Source: Marinobacter sp. (lineage in GTDB: Bacteria; Pseudomonadota; Gammaproteobacteria; Pseudomonadales; Oleiphilaceae). Taken from it: a DNA stretch of 32,000 nt. The position numbers and the translations under genes were made by a program. Location of the stretch: the NCBI RefSeq assembly GCF_965229515.1, contig NZ_OZ245884.1, one strand, 5' to 3'. Numbering within the stretch: position 1 is the stretch's first letter; each line of letters starts with the position of its first letter. Positions 9,111 to 30,286 of the stretch are shown in pieces. Under the pieces are notes generated by a model. The model made no database searches. It had not been told where the DNA came from and saw only the letters and a program-made list of their open reading frames with translations.

Positions 9111-9135
9111 TTTGGGCCGCTTAATAGGTCCACTT

Positions 9136-9155
9136 TTAAACAAAAGCGAACATTC
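9136..9155 (+). repeat. left copy of imperfect direct repeat bracketing the AT-rich insert
   Basis: TTAAACAAAAGCGAACATTC at 9136-9155 versus TTAAACAAGAAGCGAACATTC at 15842-15862: identical except one inserted G. Weaker similarity continues about 10 nt further (cgcagcgcctca versus cacgcccctta). Confidence 0.55.
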
Positions 9156-9209: not shown

Positions 9210-9795
9210 TCAAGAACCCGGCAAACGATCAAATGGAATAACTGTTCCAGCTCGTCGATCGCCAATAATGTGGGTCTAGATTTCAGCCTTTAGATTATCG
9301 CTGTGGCCGAGGATGCCTGAAACGCTCGGCTATCACTTCCCGATCTAGGCAGCTCAGTGGTATAAGCGTGGCGGAAAAGGATGTCCCGCCACCTGTTTGA
9401 TAATTCCGCTCGCGTTCACGACCTGCCTCAATTGCAGCGCGTATGTTGAACGATGAAGGTGATATCGGCAAGCATAGCGTGTAATGGGGTAAATGCATCG
9501 TGTTTAAGATGGGAATAGATACTGTCAACCAAAGTCTTTCATGACCGGTCCGTACTTCTTATGCAGAGAAGTCTGAGCCGAAGTGAGCCCAAATCCATCG
9601 GCCAGGTCGGACTCATGTACTACTCGTGAATGGGCAATTTGCCGCTCCATGTCCGCTCTCAAGTTGCCTCGCATAAGTGTATGGTGATCTTTTCGGCCCT
9701 TACTTGGACTTGCCCCGGTCCACTAGCTCGATCGGGGCAAGTCTATGTCCGTGCCAGAGCACCGGAGAGCTTCGGCCTTAAGCAGGGTGGCTTCA
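9210..9795 (-). pseudogene. intI: integron integrase (IntI) relic: C-terminal ~195 codons, 5'-truncated, with 4 in-frame stops and 2 frameshifts
   Basis: Minus-strand conceptual translation, * = stop, / = frameshift: ..AEALRCSGTDIDLPRSS*WTGASPSKGRKDHHTLMRGNLRADMERQIAHSRVVHESDLADGFGLTSAQTSLHKKYGPVMKDFG*QYLFPS*TRCIYPITRYACRYHLHRSTYALQLRQVVNASGIIKQVAGHPF/RHAYTTELPRSGSDSRAFQ/GILGHSDNLKAEI*THIIGDRRAGTVIPFDRLPGS*. From memory this parallels IntI1/VchIntIA blocks: GKGxKDR, the IntI-specific insertion ..L.RKYP.A....WQYLFPS, RHHLHES..Q.A...A....GI.K...CHTLRHSFATHLL, G.DIRTVQE.LGHSDV.TT.IYTHVL. Confidence 0.75.
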
Positions 9796-9914
9796 GAATC
9801 TGATAATCATGACTTTAACAACAGTGCACTGTCCCAATATGTATAACTGTACTACCTTTTACAACCTAGAGTGGTACGAAAAACTGGTCAATCGCGGTGT
9901 ATTTGGAGGGAAAA

Positions 9915-10202
9915 ATGGGACGTGCAAAGCATCACCAAATGGAGCAGGAAGGAAAAGTCGACCATGCACTCGCCCTCTGTGTGCAAGTTGGTGCGGCAGA
10001 GGAGTGTGAGTTTCACCCGGGAACTTACTTAGATTCCATGGAGTTTTTTGACTACGAGGAACTGGCTGACAAGATCGTTAATGAGGTTCCCGATGCGATG
10101 GACGGGTTCAACAGTAGGGATGAACTTGTCGAATGTGTCGAAAGTGCTATGGGAATGGCTGGAGATGAATGCGGGTCTTGCGCCAGTTACAGAGACTCCT
10201 GA
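9915..10202 (+). CDS. small acidic hypothetical protein (first cassette ORF)
   Basis: Within ORF 9897..10202. ATG at 9915 is preceded by GGAGGG (9905-9910). 95 aa, MGRAKHHQMEQEGKVDHALALCVQVGAAEECEFHPGTY...GDECGSCASYRDS, very D/E-rich with a C-terminal CxxC. No family recognised. Confidence 0.5.
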   Translation: MGRAKHHQMEQEGKVDHALALCVQVGAAEECEFHPGTYLDSMEFFDYEELADKIVNEVPDAMDGFNSRDELVECVESAMGMAGDECGSCASYRDS

Positions 10203-10498: not shown

Positions 10499-10598
10499 GC
10501 TTAACCATTGCAAGCACGGCGACAGCTTTTCAATTGCAGCGGCGCCTCCATTCCAAAACCGTGCATGCTGCGGGCGTGATCCTTCTTTGGAGTTCTGA
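10499..10598 (+). repeat. attC-like element (family with conserved core TTTTC..GGCGCC TCC..AAAAC)
   Basis: Starts GCTTAAC (fits RYYYAAC) and ends GTTCTGA, 9 nt before the next ATG. GC-rich relative to neighbouring ORFs. Its core resembles the elements at 12276 and 14090. Confidence 0.4.
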
Positions 10599-10606
10599 GC
10601 AAAATT

Positions 10607-11248
10607 ATGAATTATATTTTGATAGGATTGCAGGTCTTGATTTTGCTTGGAATAGGCAGCCTTTTTCTGTTTAGGAAATACCTATTTTCGTACTCTTCGG
10701 AAAAAGGAAAGAACCTTGCAACAAAGGAAGATATAGGTGACATCACTCGAAAAGTTGAAGACGTAAAAACTGGATACATTACCGAGATTGAGCGTATGAA
10801 AGTTGATCTTTCATTATTGTCGAGGAAAAACAACATCCTCCTTGATGAAAAAATACGTGTTTTCAAGCGGTTGCAAAAAAGACTGGTCGATTTTAAAAAA
10901 TACTGTGAAGCAGCCTTAGGGTCATATGATGATCAAGGAGAGTTACATCCAAATTTGAATGTGTTGGCAGAAGGCATCGACAAAGCAGCTTTACAGCATA
11001 TTACTGCTCTACATCAAATGGTGCAGGAGGACTTTATATTTCTCTCGAAGAAGTCGAGAAGCATTTTAGCTGAGTTGCATCATAATTGTTCCATGATGTG
11101 CAGTATGGAGCTTGCGGTGTTTGGTGAGGAGGCTGGTTCCAAAATGGCAAAAAGCACTATTCCAGTCTATGAATCAGCGATAAGAAATATAGACAGCTGC
11201 TTACAAAGCCTCTACGAGGAGCTGGAATTTCCGTCCAGCGGAGAATAG
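10607..11248 (+). CDS. hypothetical membrane-anchored coiled-coil protein
   Basis: 213 aa. N-terminal hydrophobic helix MNYILIGLQVLILLGIGSLFLF, then K/E/L-rich heptad-like sequence. AT-rich codon usage. Confidence 0.65.
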   Translation: MNYILIGLQVLILLGIGSLFLFRKYLFSYSSEKGKNLATKEDIGDITRKVEDVKTGYITEIERMKVDLSLLSRKNNILLDEKIRVFKRLQKRLVDFKKYCEAALGSYDDQGELHPNLNVLAEGIDKAALQHITALHQMVQEDFIFLSKKSRSILAELHHNCSMMCSMELAVFGEEAGSKMAKSTIPVYESAIRNIDSCLQSLYEELEFPSSGE

Positions 11249-11314
11249 AAACGAGGCGCTGCTCGGAACAAAGCTACGCTGCGCTTCGGTTCGCCCCAGA
11301 GCGCGGCGTTAAAA
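11246..11314 (+). repeat. attC-like recombination site candidate (best-formed example)
   Basis: TAGAAAC (stop codon plus AAC) at 11246-11252 ... GTTAAAA at 11308-11314. Between them GAGGCGCTGCTCGGAACAAAGC pairs imperfectly, with bulged bases, against GCTTCGGTTCGCCCCAGAGCGCGGC around an 8-nt loop TACGCTGC. Length 69 bp. Confidence 0.5.
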
Positions 11315-11327
11315 ATCAGGAAAAACT

Positions 11328-12281
11328 ATGGCAAGACCTTCAATTCCAGCAGAGATTAGGAGAGCCGTTTTGGTCGAAGCCGGCCACCGTTGTGCTATTC
11401 CTCGATGTGGTGAAACAGAGCTTGATGTGCACCACATCGTTCCCTGGGAAGCTTGCAAAAAGCATGAGTATTCAAACTTGATTGCGCTCTGTCCGATCTG
11501 CCATCGCAGAGCTCATAAAGGTGAGATTGATCGTAAGGCTTTGCTTCAATACAAAGCTGCACTCACCGCAGGTAGTGGGCCAGGAATGCAAGCGAATTTT
11601 GAGGCGCCAATTGTTGAGATTCGGCGGCGAATATTTGAAAGGAACACGGACGTGCCAGGTTTTACATTCCAGTTCGACTTTCCGGACTTTGAAGGTCTAG
11701 TACAACGCATTGTTTCTAAAAATGTAGAGGCGTGGGGATATGAGCTTTTGGCGGATTTCAGGCATCATCAGGAAACAGTCATGCCTGTTAAAGATGAAGG
11801 CAATCCAGATACCGAGAGTTTTTATAAAGTCCCTAGTAGTTTGCGTGGCAGTTACCAAATAATTCGTAATGATGATGTGGTTATCAGTCTGGAGTACACA
11901 CTAGATAGGTTTTTCACCGGCTCTGCGCACGGTGGCCGTAATACGCGCGTTCAGAATTTCTTGATCAGCCCTTTTCAACCTATAACCGCTAGGGATCTTC
12001 TCGCTGAAAACTCGTCGCTAGGTGACCTTTCAGAATTGGTTCGAAGCAGACTGCTATCGAATCGACAATATAGTGAAAATTGGGTTATCAAAGGCACTGA
12101 GCCAAAAGGCGATAATTTTTCCAACTTTGTTTTAGAAAAAAACGGTATCCAGTTTATTTTTGATGAGTATCAAATTGACTGCTACGCCGCTGGAAGGCAA
12201 AAGCTTTGGATAGGTTATGACCAGTTTGCAGGTATTGGGAATCACTCATTGTTCTCGAAGCTAGCGGGCAATGATTTTTAA
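11328..12281 (+). CDS. HNH endonuclease domain fused to a DUF3298/RsiV-like domain
   Basis: 317 aa, RBS AGGAAA. N-terminus CAIPRCGETELDVHHIVPWEACKKHEYSNLIALCPICHRRAH has the Cys4 HNH pattern. The C-terminal part has ISLEYTLDRFFTGSAHGGRNTRVQNFLISPFQPITARDLL and GIQFIFDEYQIDCYAAGRQKLWIGYDQF, which match my memory of the DUF3298 signature (y.ytGGAHg....n.d..tGk.l.l.dlf ... f.F..Yei.pYa.G). Confidence 0.8.
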   Translation: MARPSIPAEIRRAVLVEAGHRCAIPRCGETELDVHHIVPWEACKKHEYSNLIALCPICHRRAHKGEIDRKALLQYKAALTAGSGPGMQANFEAPIVEIRRRIFERNTDVPGFTFQFDFPDFEGLVQRIVSKNVEAWGYELLADFRHHQETVMPVKDEGNPDTESFYKVPSSLRGSYQIIRNDDVVISLEYTLDRFFTGSAHGGRNTRVQNFLISPFQPITARDLLAENSSLGDLSELVRSRLLSNRQYSENWVIKGTEPKGDNFSNFVLEKNGIQFIFDEYQIDCYAAGRQKLWIGYDQFAGIGNHSLFSKLAGNDF

Positions 12282-12373
12282 CTAGGTGGTGCAGCGGACC
12301 GCTTTTCGGCGCGGTGCGCCTCCAAAACGGCCGTCGATCCCAGGCGCTAGAAAACTACTGGACAGTGTTACAA
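12276..12373 (+). repeat. attC-like element (conserved-core family)
   Basis: TTTTAAC (contains stop TAA) at 12276-12282 ... GTTACAA at 12367-12373; the reverse complement of the first, GTTAAAA, matches it 6/7. The next ATG abuts at 12374. Core hairpin TTTT-C-GGCGC-GGT-GCGCC-TCC-AAAA. Confidence 0.4.
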
Positions 12374-13153
12374 ATGAAAAACCACCTAGAATCTCAAGGC
12401 ACCGGCCTGTTAATGGGGATAAACGCGTTCGAACCATACATCTATAAGATGCATCAAGATTTCGACGCTGGTGCATTTAAGGATTGGCCAACAGTGGTTC
12501 TCGCCACAACTTTGCAAGCATCCGCGGTTTCTTTATTCAAAGTATTGCCTCCTGTGGATAACCCATCGGAGATGTTAGATAAACGCTCTATTGCAAGTCT
12601 TGTGCGCAATCTCGTGGATACGCATGATGTGGTAGAGATGCTTGTCACATCAAACAGTGAAGAAGAGTGGACTCTTCACCGAGATATTCTTGGCCTATAT
12701 ATCAGCAGCAGAATCCATAAGGTACAAAATTTAATAACACCCGAAGAGGCTCAAAAATTATTTCCGCATACCAAAAGTTGGTACTGGAATCGAATTAGAT
12801 CATCTTCGTTGTTCAACAAAAAAATGTCGCGATTAAAAGACGGTGAACAAATTTTTTATAGAAGCCGCAGAGAGCGAGTTGAACTCGCTTGTGGCGGAAA
12901 TACCGATTTTGTTCTTGCTGTTCTTACTGATCTATCTTCTTTCGTGCACTCCCTACCTGTACAAATATGGTTTGGTGACGAGAAAAAACTCTATAACAAT
13001 ACCAAGAAAAACCAAGATATGGTTGCGGTCTGGCTGCGGGTTGCCAATTTCTACTTAGCCCGTAGCTTTGGAAAAATTATGGCGTGCGCGTCCTACAAAG
13101 TAAGCAAAGAAATGAATCAATTTACTAACCGTTTTCAGTCAGCCTTTGACTGA
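12374..13153 (+). CDS. hypothetical protein (probably all-alpha), no motif recognised
   Basis: The ORF track starts at GTG 12314, inside the GC-rich attC-like element. I prefer ATG 12374, giving 259 aa (MKNHLESQGTGLLMGINAFEPYIYKMHQDF...). AT-rich. Confidence 0.6.
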   Translation: MKNHLESQGTGLLMGINAFEPYIYKMHQDFDAGAFKDWPTVVLATTLQASAVSLFKVLPPVDNPSEMLDKRSIASLVRNLVDTHDVVEMLVTSNSEEEWTLHRDILGLYISSRIHKVQNLITPEEAQKLFPHTKSWYWNRIRSSSLFNKKMSRLKDGEQIFYRSRRERVELACGGNTDFVLAVLTDLSSFVHSLPVQIWFGDEKKLYNNTKKNQDMVAVWLRVANFYLARSFGKIMACASYKVSKEMNQFTNRFQSAFD

Positions 13154-13217
13154 ACGTGTTATAGCCGCGCGCAGGGAAGGTCGCTCCTATCTCGCCTTTC
13201 CGCTGAAAGTGTTAACT
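13149..13217 (+). repeat. attC-like recombination site candidate
   Basis: ACTGAAC (contains stop TGA) ... GTTAACT. Internal CAGGGAAGG pairs with CCTTtCCgCTG, leaving two bulged bases. Length 69 bp. The outer arms pair poorly (see finding on the local direct repeat). Confidence 0.4.
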
Positions 13218-13237
13218 TTTTTAAAACTAGGTGAGAG

Positions 13238-14095
13238 ATGGACTGGAAAGAATACGAAAAGGAGATTTTCGAGCATTTTAAGGGGCAGTACCCTGCTGCC
13301 GAAATCACGTTGGATGCTCGGAAAACAGGACTATATTCAAAGACTGAGCGCCAAATTGACATTTTGATTGAGCAGTATGTAGCGGGAAACCGAATCGTTA
13401 TCGCTATTGACGGGAAATACCTAAATAAGAAGGTCGATGTTAAAGCAGTCGAAAGTTATATAGGCATGCTGGAGGACATTGGAGCCCACAAAGGGTTGCT
13501 AGTTTCGAAAGAGGGTTTTTCGGAGACAGCATACAACAGAGCGCATTTCGGGCCTACCGAGATTGAATTAGACATCCTTAACTTCGAAGAACTTAAACGC
13601 TTCCAAGCGTATGGTGCGATCCCCTATGCTGGTGATTGCGGTGCTTTAATTCCTGCTCCATTAGGCTGGGTTGTCGACATTCAAACCACACCAGCTTGGC
13701 TGGCGACGCTCTATCAGCAAGGCCGCACGTTAGACGAAGCCATGAAAGATGCTGAATTCATGTACGTTCACTTTTGGAATCGACGAAAGGACGGCCATGA
13801 TCTAGAGGATTTGCTGAAGCTTCAAAAGGAAAATCTGCTGAAAGTCGATCAGGAATGCGTGATTGATTTTATACCAACGATCAAACGAAAAGACGCAGAA
13901 ACGAAGCTTCGGGTTGCTTATGTAAGTCAATATCCATCGCCAGAATACACGGGCTTTGTACAATTTACGGATTTTATTTTCTTCTGTGTCCTGTTCTCTC
14001 CAGAAAATAGGTTGAAAAGCAATATCCGGAAGTTAGAAAACATCATGGAAGCAGTGAAACCAATAAAAATTAAGCGTCATAAAGTTAACCAGTAA
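13238..14095 (+). CDS. restriction-endonuclease-like (Mrr_cat / PD-(D/E)xK) N-domain protein with unknown C-terminal domain
   Basis: 285 aa, RBS AGGTGAGAG. EKEIFEHFKGQYP...ERQIDILIEQYVAGNRIVIAIDGKYLNKKVDVKAVESYIGMLEDIGAHKGLLVSKEGFSETA follows the Mrr-type pattern: D...(D/E)xK core, then a ..G..(V/T)(S/T)..GF(S/T)..A tail. The remaining ~170 aa are unrecognised. Confidence 0.75.
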   Translation: MDWKEYEKEIFEHFKGQYPAAEITLDARKTGLYSKTERQIDILIEQYVAGNRIVIAIDGKYLNKKVDVKAVESYIGMLEDIGAHKGLLVSKEGFSETAYNRAHFGPTEIELDILNFEELKRFQAYGAIPYAGDCGALIPAPLGWVVDIQTTPAWLATLYQQGRTLDEAMKDAEFMYVHFWNRRKDGHDLEDLLKLQKENLLKVDQECVIDFIPTIKRKDAETKLRVAYVSQYPSPEYTGFVQFTDFIFFCVLFSPENRLKSNIRKLENIMEAVKPIKIKRHKVNQ

Positions 14096-14172
14096 CTACA
14101 GTCAGACTAGTTTTCCGGCGCATTTGTGCCTCCAAATTGGCCACTGCGCACAGCATTAAGCCCTTGTAATTT
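14090..14172 (+). repeat. attC-like element (conserved-core family), degenerate right core
   Basis: CAGTAAC (contains stop TAA) ... core TTTTCCGGCGCATTTGTGCCTCCAAATTGGCC ... ATTAAGC / GTAATTT instead of a clean GTT core. Confidence 0.35.
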
Positions 14173-14194
14173 AAGATAGAACGGAGACAACTAA

Positions 14195-15739
14195 TTGGGA
14201 TTTCCAAGGAAGATTAAAGATCAAATACTTGCGGATACTGCAAGGCATTGTTGCGTCTGCCACCGGTATAAGGGCGTTAAAGTAGAAGTTCATCACATTG
14301 AGCAGGAGGCCTTAGGCGGCTCAAACAAATATGAAAATGCCATAGCGCTTTGTTTCGATTGCCATGCTGATGCTGGTCATTACAACCCTAAACACCCTAG
14401 AGGAACCAAGTTCTCACCTGGAGAACTGAAAAAAGCAAAGGCGCAGTGGTTAGAGATCGTACGCACGAACAACATCAAAGTGCCATCTGAGCCCGATTCG
14501 TTTTTATGTCAATATTTTGTTTGCGAAAATTATGAAAATCTTGAAGAAATAGCAAAAGGTGACCTTTCTAAATTTCCTGTCAACAAGCCTCTTTTGATAA
14601 AAAATGAAATAATTCAATGTCTTGAAAAAGTCATTCAAAATCATCCGGAATCATACAGGCATGCTAATGCGTGGGGTGAGCGCTATAAAAGCAAAAAGGA
14701 CTATTTAGATCGGCATCCTGATGCTGTAGTGACAAAGGAAGGTCAGGATGAGTATTCATATTTTGAAGTTGTGAGAACCCCAACAATTGAGGAATTAAAA
14801 AAGTACTCTGAAAAAGATGGTTTGCTGAATCTAATGCTAAAAGCTGGGATGCCCATTGATAATGTATCAGCCATTATTGGATGCTATGAAAATGCATGCG
14901 GGGGAATCGAGTTTCAGGAAGAATACATATTTAGGAAGCTCTGGTGCTCTTTTGCAGCTATTACGAATATTTCTGACCAGCCCTTAGCGTTAGATTCTAT
15001 TGATGCACAGAATCAGGTTTATGATGGTTTTACTAAATTTGATCAGCCGGTCGATTCTCTTGAGAATATCCCCTTGCCAAAGATGCCTATACAGGCTGGA
15101 GCAACAGTCTTATTCCCAATGGCTTTGTTGCTTCCGCCTCTACACTCACTATCGAGACAAAAATGGTCATCATCTAGCAGCGGGGGTTGGGAAGAACAAG
15201 TGCAGATAGTTTCGCACGGAAATATAACAGAAAATAATGTGAGTGAAGTTTATACGTTCGGCGGAAAAAAGCTTCCGGAAAAACTGCATTTTATAAAGAA
15301 TGGAAATAGGGTTTCTCAGGAGTTCCATACATTTGATTTATCAAATATGTATTCTATAGATCGTCATTGGCAATGTGGATCTTGTCCTCATCTATTCTTT
15401 GTTAGCGACAAGGTCGTATATGTTAAAGAACTCTTATCGCACTGTGAAAACAAGAAAGGTGAAGAAAGGTTTTTTGTTCCTGAAGATGTGCGTGCCGTAA
15501 TAATTGCTGAGATAGAGGACGAGACTACAGAACTTCACTCCATTATAGTGGACAAGACTGTATATGCTTCCAACATAACTCTTGAAAAATCTCAGCACAT
15601 TGAAATACCGGTTAGTGGGGGATCTGAAATAACAGTAACTGGCAAGTACATCCCCTATGGAAAATCTAATAGATTCATCCCTCAAGGAATTAAAAGGAAT
15701 GACCTCGTTGGCGAGTTTTTATTCCTGACGAAAGAATAG
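14195..15739 (+). CDS. HNH endonuclease N-domain protein with ~430-aa unknown C-terminal region
   Basis: 514 aa. The start must be TTG at 14195: an in-frame TAA lies immediately upstream, GGAGA is 7 nt upstream, and the next Met is far past the HNH motif. CCVCHRYKGVKVEVHHIEQEALGGSNKYENAIALCFDCHADAGHY is paralogous to the HNH module of the 11328 gene. The remainder has no recognised motif. Confidence 0.75.
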   Translation: MGFPRKIKDQILADTARHCCVCHRYKGVKVEVHHIEQEALGGSNKYENAIALCFDCHADAGHYNPKHPRGTKFSPGELKKAKAQWLEIVRTNNIKVPSEPDSFLCQYFVCENYENLEEIAKGDLSKFPVNKPLLIKNEIIQCLEKVIQNHPESYRHANAWGERYKSKKDYLDRHPDAVVTKEGQDEYSYFEVVRTPTIEELKKYSEKDGLLNLMLKAGMPIDNVSAIIGCYENACGGIEFQEEYIFRKLWCSFAAITNISDQPLALDSIDAQNQVYDGFTKFDQPVDSLENIPLPKMPIQAGATVLFPMALLLPPLHSLSRQKWSSSSSGGWEEQVQIVSHGNITENNVSEVYTFGGKKLPEKLHFIKNGNRVSQEFHTFDLSNMYSIDRHWQCGSCPHLFFVSDKVVYVKELLSHCENKKGEERFFVPEDVRAVIIAEIEDETTELHSIIVDKTVYASNITLEKSQHIEIPVSGGSEITVTGKYIPYGKSNRFIPQGIKRNDLVGEFLFLTKE

Positions 15740-15820
15740 CCCAACAAGTCAAAGCACTCAGACGCAAACGCCGGCGGTGTTTGCGGCCTTTTCGTACCAT
15801 CTGAATGTCCGCTTTGCGAC
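15739..15820 (+). repeat. terminal attC-like element lacking a right GTT core
   Basis: Perfect RYYYAAC (GCCCAAC, 15739-15745) overlaps stop TAG. AAGTCAAAGCACTCAGA pairs with TCTGAaTGtccGCTTTGcGAC (15800-20). Central hairpin CGCAAACGCC-GGC-GGTGTTTGCG (15763-85). The expected GTTGGGC is replaced by CAATCCGG. Confidence 0.4.
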
Positions 15821-15841: not shown

Positions 15842-15862
15842 TTAAACAAGAAGCGAACATTC
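15842..15862 (+). repeat. right copy of imperfect direct repeat bracketing the AT-rich insert
   Basis: TTAAACAAGAAGCGAACATTC; see 9136-9155. Confidence 0.55.
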
Positions 15863-16181: not shown

Positions 16182-16253
16182 ATGTGGACCAAACCAGCTT
16201 ATGAGGATCTTCGCATTGGCTTCGAAGTCACCATGTATTTTTCCAATCGTTAA
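16182..16253 (+). CDS. pqqA: PQQ precursor peptide PqqA
   Basis: Below the ORF-track size cut-off. ATG 16182: [23 protein letters not shown]. 23 aa with the conserved E-x3-Y (EVTMY) crosslink pair. RBS-like AGAGGA upstream. Confidence 0.9.
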
Positions 16254-16279
16254 GGCCTGAAACAAAACGGCCAGTTTGA

Positions 16280-16894
16280 ACACGCTGGCCGGCTCGGACC
16301 CTGCGGGATATCGGTATCAGTGCGGTGATGCTGTTTGACAGCCAAGTCGACCACACCACCGGCCTGCTGATGCTTCGCGAAGGCATGCCTCTGGAGGTAT
16401 GGTGTACGACTCAGGTGCACGAAGATCTGACCAGTGGTTTTCCCCTTTTTAGTATGCTGAAACATTGGAACGGTGGTCCACGTTGGCACGAGGTACCGGC
16501 CACAGACGAGACTGCATTTAGTATCCCATGCGCCACCGTACTCTCCCCGACGCAATAAGCCGCATCCTGGCGATAATATCGGCCTTTTCATCGAGGACAC
16601 CCGCAATGGTGCGACGGCACTCTATGCCCCCGGACTCGGCAAACCTGACGCGAACATCCTGGCCTGGATGGCCAGGGCCGATACTCTGCTGGTGGACGGC
16701 ACCGTGTGGCAGGATGACGAGATGCAGCGCTGTGAAGTGGGCACCCGTACCGGGCAGCAAATGGGGCACCTGGCGCAAAGTGGTCCCGGCGGCATGATTG
16801 AGGTGCTTGATGGCCTGACTGCGACGCGGAAAATTTTAATCCACATTAACAACACCAATCCGATCTTGGATGAGTCCTCAGAAGAGCGGGCTAT
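16280..16894 (+). pseudogene. pqqB: pqqB remnant: N-terminal ~60 codons missing, internal ~40-nt deletion, 3' end deleted
   Basis: Frame 1 opens after TGA at 16277: ..[67 protein letters not shown]. It switches frame at about 16529 directly into [23 protein letters not shown]...[60 protein letters not shown]. The start-proximal segment is absent; only about 26 nt separate the pqqA stop from this frame. Confidence 0.8.
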
Positions 16895-17125
16895 TCCTAT
16901 TTCAGAAAGCGGTTGTCCGAGGCCCGTCGAGATGTTGAGCATGGACTTACGATTACGTTGGGCTTCTTTCAGACTGCTGATCAGCAGGATCGGGCGCTGG
17001 AAATACTTCAATTCAAACTGGACATACTCTGGACAATCCTGGACGCACTGACCATGGCCTATCGTCACGGTACTCCGCCCTATCATACGGTCACCGACCA
17101 GCCTGTATGGCACCGAGGTTTGTAA
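16895..17125 (+). pseudogene. pqqC: pqqC remnant: only the C-terminal ~75 codons
   Basis: [67 protein letters not shown].. is a typical PqqC C-terminus. It is fused out of frame to the pqqB remnant at about 16892. The TAATG overlap with pqqD is retained. Confidence 0.8.
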
Positions 17126-17418
17126 TGAGCGACGTGGTCAAACCGCATCTTGTCCCCAAGTTCAGAGTTGGTTTCCGTTTTCAGTGGGAGCCGGCCCAAA
17201 ATGCATACGTGCTGCTTTATCCGGAGGGGATGGTCCGGCTGAATGGCAGTGCGGGAGCCATCTTGAGCGAGGTGGATGCTAAAAGGCCCGTCGCTGAGAT
17301 GATCGAACGCCTGGAAGAAAACTTCCCGGATGCCGGGTCGCTGTCCGATGACGTGATGGCCTTTCTTATGGAAGCCCGGGACAACGGCTGGATTTTGCCA
17401 ACACCCAAAAAGAGCTGA
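17125..17418 (+). CDS. pqqD: PQQ biosynthesis peptide chaperone PqqD (apparently intact)
   Basis: Within ORF 17107..17418; ATG 17125 overlaps the pqqC stop. [88 protein letters not shown] matches PqqD over full length. Confidence 0.85.
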
Positions 17419-28540: not shown

Positions 28541-29935
28541 ATGACCGAATCCACCATCAATGCCCTGGTATCTCCAGAAGGCAGCCTGGAAATCCTCTCC
28601 AACTTTGAAGTCAACCGGCTCAAAGACCGAAGCGAAGGAGGGCTTTATCGGCTGTTCCGGCAATGCGCCCTGGCCGTGCTCAACACCGGCGTTGAAACCG
28701 ATGACTGTAAAACCCTGATGGAAGCCCACGCGGATTTCGACGTTCGCCTGGTGCCGCAGCCTCGAGGCCTGAAACTGGAATTGGTCAACGCGCCCGCCCA
28801 CGCCTTCGTGGACGGTCAGATGTTGCGCGCTATCCGCGAGCATCTGTTTTCGGTATTGCGGGATATCATCTATTCCTACTCCATTCCCCAGTCCGCGGTC
28901 GGTCTTCGCCGGGACGACCCTGAGGGCATCACCAACCTGATTTTCCACATCCTCCGTAACGCCCGCGTACTGCAGGCAGGGCGTCATCCGGACCTGGTGG
29001 TATGTTGGGGTGGTCACTCCATCAACGAGCGCGAATATCAGTACAGCAAGGAAGTGGGCCACCAGCTTGGTTTGCGAGGATTGAGTATTTGCACCGGTTG
29101 CGGCCCTGGCGCCATGAAAGGTCCAATGAAAGGCGCCACCATTGGCCACGCCAAACAGCGGGTGAAAAACGGCCGCTACATTGGCCTGACGGAACCGGGC
29201 ATCATCGGTGCCGAAGCGCCAAACCCGATCGTTAACGAACTGGTGATCATGCCGGATATCGAGAAACGCCTCGAAGCCTTCGTTCGGACAGGCCACGGCG
29301 TCATTGTGTTCCCCGGTGGTGTCGGCACGGCAGAGGAAATTCTCTATCTGCTGGGCATCCTGCTGCACCCGGACAATGCCGACCTTCCCTTTCCGGTCGT
29401 CTTTACCGGCCAACAGGAAAATGCGGAATACTTCGAGATGATTGACCAGTTCATTCGCAATGCACTGGGTGACGAAGCTGCCAGCAAGTACGAGATCATC
29501 ATTGACGATCCGGACAAAGTTGCCCATACCATGAAACAGGGTATGAAGGACGTGGAAACCTTCCGCCGGGCCATGCAGGACGCTTATTACTTCAACTGGA
29601 TGCTGAGGATCGACCCGGTGTTCCAAATGCCTTTTGAGCCCACCCATAAAAGCATGCGGGCGCTGGAGCTACACCGTCACCAGCCAGTTCACCTGATTGC
29701 CGCCAATCTGCGCAAGGCGTTCAGTGGCATCGTCGCCGGCAACGTCAAGGAAAGCGGCATACGCCACGTGCAGGCCAAAGGGCCGTTTGAAATCTCCGGC
29801 GATCCGGAACTACTGGCCCCCCTGGAAGCGATGCTGAAAGAGTTCGTCGCCCAGGACCGTATGAAACTGCCCGGTTCGGGCGCTTACGAACCCAGTTACC
29901 GAATTGTCAGCGAAGCAACGCCCGCCACACCCTGA
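28541..29935 (+). CDS. ppnN: nucleotide 5'-monophosphate nucleosidase PpnN (YgdH, LOG family)
   Basis: Within ORF 28442..29935; ATG 28541 gives MTESTINALVSPEGSLEILSNFEVNRLKD.. as in YgdH. LOG-type GGGPGAMKGPMKGA and PGGVGTAEE motifs. Confidence 0.85.
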   Translation: MTESTINALVSPEGSLEILSNFEVNRLKDRSEGGLYRLFRQCALAVLNTGVETDDCKTLMEAHADFDVRLVPQPRGLKLELVNAPAHAFVDGQMLRAIREHLFSVLRDIIYSYSIPQSAVGLRRDDPEGITNLIFHILRNARVLQAGRHPDLVVCWGGHSINEREYQYSKEVGHQLGLRGLSICTGCGPGAMKGPMKGATIGHAKQRVKNGRYIGLTEPGIIGAEAPNPIVNELVIMPDIEKRLEAFVRTGHGVIVFPGGVGTAEEILYLLGILLHPDNADLPFPVVFTGQQENAEYFEMIDQFIRNALGDEAASKYEIIIDDPDKVAHTMKQGMKDVETFRRAMQDAYYFNWMLRIDPVFQMPFEPTHKSMRALELHRHQPVHLIAANLRKAFSGIVAGNVKESGIRHVQAKGPFEISGDPELLAPLEAMLKEFVAQDRMKLPGSGAYEPSYRIVSEATPATP

Positions 29936-29947
29936 CGATGGTGGGGA

Positions 29948-30286
29948 TTATTCCCCACCATCCGCCGGAAGGCTTGCGTAGTAGGCCGCCAGGTTGGCAA
30001 TGTCCTCATCACTGAGGCCCGCCGCCTGGCCCTGCATGATGGCGGCTTGGCCACCGTTACGTTGCTTGTTTTTGTACGCCTTGAGCGAAGACACCAGATA
30101 CTGCTCGTTCTGTCCCGCCAGGTTGGGGTAACCCGGGATGGCAGCGATGCCATTCTTGCCATGGCAGGCTGCACACACAGCGGCCTTGGTTTTACCGGCC
30201 TCAGCATCACCAGCGGCCATGGTAACGGCGGGAGCGGCAGCCCCCAACACAAACACGGCGGCCAGGGTGTGGTATTTCAGTCTCAT
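29948..30286 (-). CDS. monohaem class I cytochrome c
   Basis: 112 aa with signal peptide, CAACHG, and [13 protein letters not shown] typical of c4/c5-type domains. Confidence 0.8.

Follow-up and report, generated by a model that had tools for sequence, protein, structure and literature searches.

What does a row of five AT-rich genes, three of them encoding DNA-cleaving domains, do in the genome of a Marinobacter? The question is raised by a block of genes, g1 to g5 (Table 1), in a 32,000-nucleotide (nt) stretch of contig NZ_OZ245884.1 (Marinobacter sp., assembly GCF_965229515.1), hereafter the window. An earlier note on this DNA had proposed that the block carries one or several anti-phage or anti-mobile genetic element (MGE) systems as integron cassettes. 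From our analysis we infer that g2, g4 and g5 are most likely stand-alone anti-phage/anti-MGE proteins, of the type that joins an effector to a constant module. We consider it moderately probable that the block as a whole is cargo of a fossil integron, which arrived as separate cassettes and includes three probable nuclease defences.

Three candidate nuclease defences

A probable role in defence is assigned to g2, g4 and g5 because their families are large and of patchy spread, their catalytic residues are conserved, relatives of g2 and g5 swap the effector, restriction-modification and other defence genes neighbour their homologues, and they are nearly absent from phages. The domain calls made by the earlier note for these three DNA-cleaving proteins were confirmed by Pfam, and on alignment their nuclease motifs are intact, not degenerate. 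Of the defence role proposed for the block, context and domain logic make the part concerning g2, g4 and g5 plausible.

In g5, Pfam detects an HNH domain (E 7.9e-7, residues 19-59) and nothing past residue ~100. The constant part of its family, which counts more than 565 full-length relatives, is the C-terminal module of ~420 residues, in which the motifs YRH, QEEY..R.LW, GSCPHLFF and IIAEIEDE are invariant or nearly so (alignment A1). The AlphaFold2 (AF2) model reaches a predicted local distance difference test (pLDDT) score of ~90 over residues 100-510, and the module has no meaningful structural match in PDB or BFVD. Searched by sequence against PDB, g5 matched only McrA-type HNH domains. 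The family is spread patchily over Gammaproteobacteria, Bacteroidota, Nitrospirota, Chloroflexota, Acidobacteriota, Myxococcota and one Aenigmatarchaeota metagenome-assembled genome (MAG). The homologue in this MAG is full-length and 40% identical (L013, 5539-7083), and reflects either inter-domain transfer or a binning artefact. In a sub-clade which includes the Vibrio loci, two predicted transmembrane (TM) helices stand in place of the HNH domain.

Among the immediate neighbours of g5 homologues are type I HsdS (4/95), Mrr_cat (3) and transposase (3) genes, and AAA_15/21 proteins, helicases and PLD nucleases recur. OLD-family nucleases flank the Vibrio copies, and resolvase, cNMP-TIR, RadC and AlpA genes are found at other loci. 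Related RES-domain proteins of ~330-370 amino acids (aa) were observed beside g5 homologues in three unrelated loci (L012:11673-12737, L014:12491-13486 and L106:2120-3223) and may be a fourth member of the co-localising set described below.

The second HNH protein, g2, combines this domain (E 4.3e-10, residues 21-64) with a C-terminal DUF3298 (E 2.5e-9, residues 223-298), the latter scoring 38.4 bits against a gathering score of 24.1. Between them lies a PdaC/DUF4163 match of 18.2 bits, below its gathering score of 29.1; PdaC is listed for several relatives in precomputed Pfam tables. The C-terminal part also matches a DUF3298 protein of known structure (PDB 3s5t, E 1.7e-5). The HNH residues C22, C27, H35, H36, N50, C55, C58, H59 and H63 are at least 90% conserved. 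Across at least 1054 hits the family keeps a uniform architecture of ~315 aa, already annotated as 'HNH endonuclease' or 'DUF3298 protein'. The HNH domain starts at residue ~10, and by eye no signal peptide or TM helix is evident. In one relative (L147; PdaC E 6.5e-5, sub-threshold), a TIR_2 domain replaces HNH on the same PdaC/DUF3298 module. Homologues of g2 occur in a co-oriented, cassette-like array of small open reading frames (ORFs) in Microbulbifer and beside an AAA_15/21-DUF3696 islet in Pseudomonas, and stand alone, with no partner gene, in L069 and L070. The Microbulbifer array also holds a group II intron reverse transcriptase/maturase (L069:3714-5258).

The nuclease of g4 is of a different kind. 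Pfam assigns residues 1-104 to Mrr_cat (E 3e-7), and D41, D58 and K60, the latter two forming D58-x-K60, are invariant or nearly so in the family alignment. In the AF2 model (pLDDT 83) the nuclease resembles MspJI (Foldseek E 4e-4) and AspBHI. In the structural comparison that the earlier note had suggested for the C-terminal domains, that of g4 proved to be a PsbP/Mog1/DcrB-like alpha/beta sandwich (PsbP in PDB, Foldseek E 1e-5 to 1e-4), and the g5 module, as said, found no match. A domain shared by g4 and g5 was considered and rejected (hhalign probability 0.3%). The g4 family has at least 506 relatives, some with an added TPR extension. On a Sulfuricurvum plasmid, a g4 homologue lies beside genes for type I HsdR, DUF4062, a HEPN-like protein and a recombinase; elsewhere, homologues neighbour NYN-LOTUS, trypsin-TPR, RES and integrase genes. 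A DUF1311/LprI neighbour on the same plasmid was dropped as a second lysozyme-related link, being a weak Pfam match (E 0.0085) and unrelated to g2.

Judging by neighbourhoods and by searches of phage and viral sequences, the homologues are neither housekeeping nor phage-structural genes. No g5 protein was found in a phage genome collection or among 2.9 million viral contigs, and g4 has two hits in the phage and viral collections. For g2, the match in viral contigs (L153-L176, IMG/VR, ~35-40 kb) is confined to the ~80-aa HNH module, which is 53-73% identical to small HNH genes of prophages; the sole viral hit that reaches the DUF3298 side covers residues 3-216 (L154). This suggests that the HNH module of g2 may have been recruited from phages, or is common with them. 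In PHROGs, only the HNH domains of the block were matched.

The earlier note had recognised no named defence family, and PADLOC-DB 2.0.0 (2023) likewise gave no significant system-specific match. The best hits are to the HNH region of a type IV restriction endonuclease (REase; E 1.1e-4) and to PDC-S02, over 47 residues of the Mrr core. The suggestion that the domain combinations look undescribed is too broad, since the family joining HNH to DUF3298 is large and already annotated.

We propose a sensor-effector mechanism because relatives swap N-terminal effectors on the same C-terminal module, a swap seen twice: TIR_2 takes the place of HNH on the PdaC/DUF3298 module, and two TM helices do so on that of g5. 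The C-terminal module would hold the nuclease inactive and would bind a cue associated with infection, such as a phage protein or a nucleic-acid feature. The nuclease would then cleave DNA and stop the phage, perhaps sacrificing the cell. For g2, a likeness exists to the lysozyme receptor RsiV, whose DUF4163 and DUF3298 module is a lysozyme-binding domain, although DUF4163 is sub-threshold in g2. In RsiV, the module is extracytoplasmic, is preceded by a TM helix and regulates a sigma factor (PMC5014341), whereas in g2 it is fused to a nuclease, or in L147 to TIR, and follows no evident export signal. Because not all proteins with DUF4163/DUF3298 bind lysozyme (PMC5014341), a specific ligand of g2 is a lead only. 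A full-text literature search found no paper tying DUF3298 to phage defence.

Cargo of a fossil integron

The comparisons support the view that the block is, by all appearances, cargo of a fossil chromosomal integron in Marinobacter. The genes are integron cassettes, as the earlier note had claimed, which is indicated by an intI pseudogene upstream and by borders defined through homology. The intI remnant matches the 'integron integrase' model TIGR02249 (E 2.6e-21) over model positions 154-301/315, with 76 bits against a cut-off of 265, and its minus-strand translation consists of IntI-type stretches broken by stops. It is divergent from the co-oriented array, in which spacers between genes measure 80-100 nt, and its 5' half has been replaced or lost, as has the region where attI would be expected. 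The remnant is also found in the sister contigs.

Cassette borders were traced by comparison with a metagenomic contig (L001), Microbulbifer sp. SH-1 (L069), Marinobacter adhaerens, and the sister contigs (98-99% DNA identity), which carry the same array (L066 and others). Homology of g4 to M. adhaerens (88%) extends only over 13223-14158, from R' to R', and starts just past GTTAACT in the g3-g4 spacer. Homology of g2 to Microbulbifer (88%) extends over 11299-12349, from the GTTAAAA box to the G of the next R'. In L001, homologues of g1 and g5 (79% and 84% identical) are adjacent and g2-g4 are absent; canonical attC sites lie upstream of the g1 homologue and between the two, which makes the g1 homologue a separate cassette between canonical sites. 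For g3, close homologues were found only in the sister contigs, so distant comparison gives no border. Because DNA homology starts and stops at attC R' boxes, g1, g2, g4 and g5 are separate single-gene cassettes. Taken together, the genome comparisons show the block to be made up of what appear to be five separate, once independently mobile single-gene cassettes. Of the two readings left by the earlier note, independent cassettes or a co-acting locus, the former is the better one. The C-terminal tails of several g4 and g5 homologues read '...(P/A)NKS...', as an attC R''/L'' box does in translation, which is consistent with a frequent residence of these families in cassettes.

A rearrangement of the array was observed in three sister contigs, L066 (4858-5900), L067 and L068 (98% identical). 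Of g5, they retain no more than the initial 25 nt, after which come unrelated sequence and a fragment of an IS66-family transposase. Because this fragment follows the g5 stub, we attribute the loss of g5 to a rearrangement associated with an insertion sequence (IS).

Table 1. Positions of the block genes, the integrase remnant, the attC sites and a small neighbouring ORF in the window.
Feature	Position	Strand	Description
intI pseudogene	~9264-9800	-	TIGR02249 match; C-terminal half only, many stop codons
Small ORF, lambda ea8.5-like	9897-10202	+	101 aa; between intI remnant and g1
S0, eroded attC upstream of g1	10499-10573	+	R'' GCTTAAC; R' remnant GCTGCGG vs GTTAGGC in L001
g1	10607-11248	+	213 aa
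S1, attC after g1	11246-11314	+	R'' ends ...GAAAC; R' GTTAAAA (11308-11314) intact
g2	11328-12281	+	317 aa
S2, eroded attC after g2	12276-12352	+	R'' TTTTAAC; R' GCTAGAA (12346-12352) vs GTTAATC in Microbulbifer
g3	12374-13153	+	259 aa
S3, attC remnant after g3	13149-13217	+	R' GTTAACT (13211-13217)
g4	13238-14095	+	285 aa
S4, eroded attC after g4	14083-14161	+	R'' AGTTAAC inside g4 end; R' ATTAAGC (14155-14161)
g5	14195-15739	+	514 aa, TTG start
Truncated attC after g5	15739-15785	+	R'' GCCCAAC, L'' AAGTCAAAGCACTC, central palindrome 15763-15785

The attC-like spacers reported earlier are real, in that intact attC sites homologous to those of the window exist in L001, L069 and M. adhaerens, but they are eroded. 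At S0, homology to L001 begins at 10570, at the canonical R' of that contig. S1 keeps an intact R', which also precedes the g2 homologue in Microbulbifer, and its 63-nt site is 84% identical to the intact second attC copy of that array (L069:3022-3084). At S2, homology to L069 stops at the G of R'; a GTTACAA at 12367 was ruled out as its R' box, since homology places R' at 12346-12352. The R' of S4 was positioned by a three-way alignment, with GTTAT in M. adhaerens against ATTA(A/G)GC in the window and the sister contigs. The site after g5 lacks L' and R', and its R''/L'' are common to the L001 homologue up to 15763; its palindrome also scores as terminator-like. The R' cores are mutated in three of the five sites (GCT, GCT and ATT).

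In a folding test, the sites of the window gave z-scores from -1.2 to +0.8, whereas three of four intact controls from L001 and L069 gave -2.9 to -4.7 and the fourth -1.1, so that the same scan did recover most intact sites (3/4). S1 folds weakly (z -0.7 to -1.2, against -2.9 for its L069 copy), S2 hardly at all (-0.2, against -3.5 for the intact L069 hairpin TTTTAAC...GTTAATC), and S0 (-0.9), S3 (+0.5 to +0.8) and S4 (-1.2) are not significant. Spacer folding, plain or constrained to AAC/GTT, was not separable from shuffles or coding sequence, and a repeat finder detected no attC repeat family within the window. The attC remnants are probably non-functional. With its integrase gene reduced to a pseudogene and its attC sites eroded, the array is probably frozen, and its cassettes have probably lost their mobility here.

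For g1 and g3, the other two cassettes, a role in defence is unsupported, and no link to the nucleases was seen. The earlier description of g1 as a TM protein agrees with one predicted N-terminal TM helix; it has no Pfam family, and its sole match in PADLOC-DB is a weak one to JetA (E 0.0028). The idea that g1 is a conserved partner of g5 was rejected, since it has no similarity to the genes upstream in L003 and g5 homologues have no consistent small TM neighbour. The g3 family is rare, with 29 cluster representatives among 1.84e9 proteins; full-length members measure 252-278 aa and conserved motifs are present. Searches of Pfam, PADLOC, PHROGs and PDB found no relative of g3, and it was missing from all distant loci, being seen only in the sister contigs. 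A relationship to the DUF3800 gene that lies between a g2-like gene and a g4 homologue in L121 was rejected on comparison, and a HEPN-like R-x5-H motif was dropped since its His is not conserved.

Alternative explanations

Could g2, g4 and g5, perhaps joined by g1 and g3, act as one locus, for example with g4 as the shared partner of HNH- and TIR-sensor proteins? Their neighbourhoods invite this idea. Among the neighbours of g5 homologues, the g4 family makes up the largest recurrent cluster, with four independent loci (L005/6, L010, L024 and L040) of ~55 besides the window; g4 lies beside g5 as often as type I HsdS does, though by an order-of-magnitude estimate genomes contain it far less often. 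In turn, the biggest neighbour cluster of g4 homologues consists of g2-like and g5-like genes, in ~6 independent lineages (L106, L117/118, L119, L121/122, L129 and L147) among 51 loci with usable flanks. All three families stand side by side in L106/L117, some spacers are operon-like (36-74 nt), and from the family sizes well under one chance adjacency is expected (again an order-of-magnitude estimate). Nevertheless, each gene forms a cassette of its own, bearing its own attC, in the window, L001, L010, L069 and M. adhaerens, and ~90% of the homologues of each family have neither of the other families nearby. Where they do meet, order, spacing (99-1255 nt) and orientation vary, and the pairwise divergences of the g4 and g5 homologues at such loci do not correlate (Spearman -0.08, p 0.70). 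Furthermore, g4 and g5 share no homology, no conserved counterpart of g1 precedes the g5 homologues, and g3 occurs in no distant locus. An obligate multi-gene system is unlikely because order, spacing and divergence are incongruent, and a co-acting system in general seems improbable to us. We favour independent single-gene modules that repeatedly gather side by side, with a facultative partnership of g4 as a minority possibility. A bolder version, to which we give little credence, would make the three families a cooperating guild, spread from Gammaproteobacteria to Bacteroidota and Chloroflexota, in which g4 is a facultative potentiator and the RsiV-like module of g2 senses a phage protein such as an endolysin.

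Even as independent modules, the three proteins could be type IV (modification-dependent) or conventional restriction enzymes, whose C-terminal domains read modified or foreign DNA and which act without abortive infection. This is suggested by the match of the HNH modules to McrA (PDB 6ghc, E 5e-4 to 1e-3), by the weak PADLOC match to a type IV REase, by the resemblance of the g4 nuclease to MspJI and AspBHI together with its RefSeq name 'restriction endonuclease', and by the prevalence of small type II/IV restriction systems among the known defences of chromosomal integrons (Darracq et al.). However, the C-terminal domains are unlike the known readers of modified DNA (SRA-like or winged helix), being PsbP-like in g4, DUF3298 in g2 and without PDB or BFVD match in g5. 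The exchange of HNH for TIR or TM helices on the same module is hard to square with a DNA-reading enzyme, and Pfam detects no cognate methyltransferase in the block. We regard the restriction explanation as unlikely. More unlikely yet, in our judgement, is that the genes serve no defence at all and are selfish or addiction toxins, homing-type HNH genes or decaying, functionless cargo. The surroundings do show decay, with a fossil integron, a frameshift in the adjacent pqqB and the loss of g5 in sister contigs to an IS66-associated truncation. Moreover, the HNH module of g2 has prophage counterparts, and toxin-antitoxin cassettes are common in chromosomal integrons (Darracq et al.). Yet none of the five ORFs has broken down, although intI and the attC sites have. 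The nuclease families are large and preserve both their full-length architecture and their catalytic residues, and the full-length proteins are nearly absent from phages. No recurrent small partner gene, as an antitoxin would be, was found around g4 or g5 homologues, which counts against a toxin-antitoxin reading.

Several points weigh against our preferred reading of g2, g4 and g5 as stand-alone defence proteins. The role in defence rests on guilt by association and on domain logic, PADLOC models are matched only by weak domain-level hits, and the neighbourhood statistics are semi-quantitative, without a matched control set. An RsiV-type module implies no particular ligand, and the invariant Cys, His and acidic residues of the g5 module could make it catalytic rather than a sensor. 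In addition, the genes may no longer be under selection, because the array decays and the pqq operon is pseudogenised.

Gene calls and surroundings

All five ORFs were recovered, consecutive and co-oriented on the plus strand, where the earlier note had placed them, and its description of the block as AT-rich fits a low-GC island (GC 0.36-0.50, against 0.53-0.63 in the flanks) bordered by an ACR3 arsenite transporter gene on one side and the pqq operon on the other. The genes are real and not chance ORFs, because each has homologues elsewhere; intact copies of all of g1-g5, at 98-99% identity, occur in sister contigs. The g3 ORF can be extended to a GTG at 12314 in the ORF listing, but we take the ATG at 12374 as its start because of the length of its full-length homologues and a cassette border at ~12346. 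The TTG start of g5 was chosen because homologues start with MGFP... at the same position. RefSeq lists the exact proteins of the block for a 4.47-Mb Marinobacter sp. chromosome, under no other labels than hypothetical protein, HNH endonuclease, hypothetical protein and restriction endonuclease. Scanning the window with Rfam and for tRNA genes gave no match, and a scan for promoters (sigma-70 consensus) and terminators found sites no more common than in shuffled sequence or by chance.

The small ORF that precedes g1 scores 26.1 bits for Pfam PF20735, just below the gathering score of 27, and is kept at 98-99% in L066 and L071/72/77. To the right of the island, the pqq operon is decayed (16183-17418). 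Its pqqA is apparently intact, pqqB is split by a frameshift across two reading frames that both match Lactamase_B_2, pqqC is seemingly cut to a tail ORF of ~70 aa (a reading by eye; no Pfam hit), and pqqD follows pqqC. A 21-nt direct repeat, TTAAACAAnAAGCGAACATTC, with copies 81% identical at 9135-9155 and 15842-15862, brackets the low-GC island and could mark its insertion borders or be due to chance. The top hit of an attC-style scan was a very stable inverted repeat of ~155 nt at 29913-30067 (-42.7 kcal/mol, 7/7 complementary end boxes), which lies far outside the island in GC-rich sequence.

Relation to known systems and significance

Defences in which a single protein joins a sensor to a swappable effector combine a constant module with alternative nuclease, TIR or TM effectors, and are genes of defence islands. 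The proteins of the block differ from them in having no NTPase or STAND domain and no homology to a named family (Pfam, PADLOC). With McrA, Mrr and MspJI they share nuclease folds, the HNH of McrA type and the PD-(D/E)xK of MspJI/Mrr type. Unlike in those enzymes, the nuclease is N-terminal in g2, g4 and g5, and the other domain is no known reader of modified DNA.

Closer parallels come from integrons, which are already established as banks of phage defences by the BRiCs, the Vibrio cholerae integron and later cassette screens. The V. cholerae chromosomal integron carries 16 defence systems, including single-gene nuclease fusions that protect against phage (Darracq et al., bioRxiv 10.1101/2024.07.02.601686; Science 2025). 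Like the genes of our block, Epona, Divona, Sirona and Nemetona are single-gene cassettes of a sedentary chromosomal integron, in which an Mrr_cat, Mrr-subfamily RecB-like or HNH-like nuclease is fused to another domain. Epona joins Mrr_cat to a holin/TM part, Divona joins DUF4365 and an Mrr-subfamily nuclease to crr6, and another contains a NinG-like HNH. The partners in the block differ, being PsbP-like in g4, PdaC/DUF3298 in g2 and the 420-aa module in g5, a comparison made by domain description only. The Vibrio systems protect by experiment, whereas the block belongs to a dead integron and its three nuclease genes are candidate defences.

BRiCs are cassette-borne, mostly small and often unannotated defence genes, about a third of them with TM helices, and their arrays stack defences (Kieffer et al., bioRxiv 10.1101/2024.07.02.601719; Science 2025). 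They share TM helices with g1 and with the TM variants of g5. In contrast to the eroded sites of the block, they reside on plasmid-borne class 1/2 integrons with functional attC. The main text of the BRiC paper makes no mention of HNH, Mrr or DUF3298 (bioRxiv 10.1101/2024.07.02.601719).

Because nuclease-fusion defences of integrons were published in 2025, g2, g4 and g5 are candidate further examples and not a new concept; the general picture is unchanged, since integrons as banks of defence genes were established in the same year. The locus is, besides, a clean example of integron death, in which the integrase and the attC sites erode and the ORFs of the cargo stay intact. The leads of greatest use are the two families with effector swaps and the recurrent co-localisation, as yet unexplained. 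The exchanges of HNH for TIR and of HNH for TM helices provide natural controls for work on the mechanism, and the co-localisation is a test case for synergy between defence genes. If the guild reading were true, a lysozyme-receptor fold would be newly used in immunity. If validated, up to three uncharacterised families, widely spread over many phyla, would join the single-gene anti-phage systems, together with C-terminal modules not now tied to immunity, namely a PsbP-like domain, an RsiV-type module and a 420-aa module without a PDB or BFVD relative.

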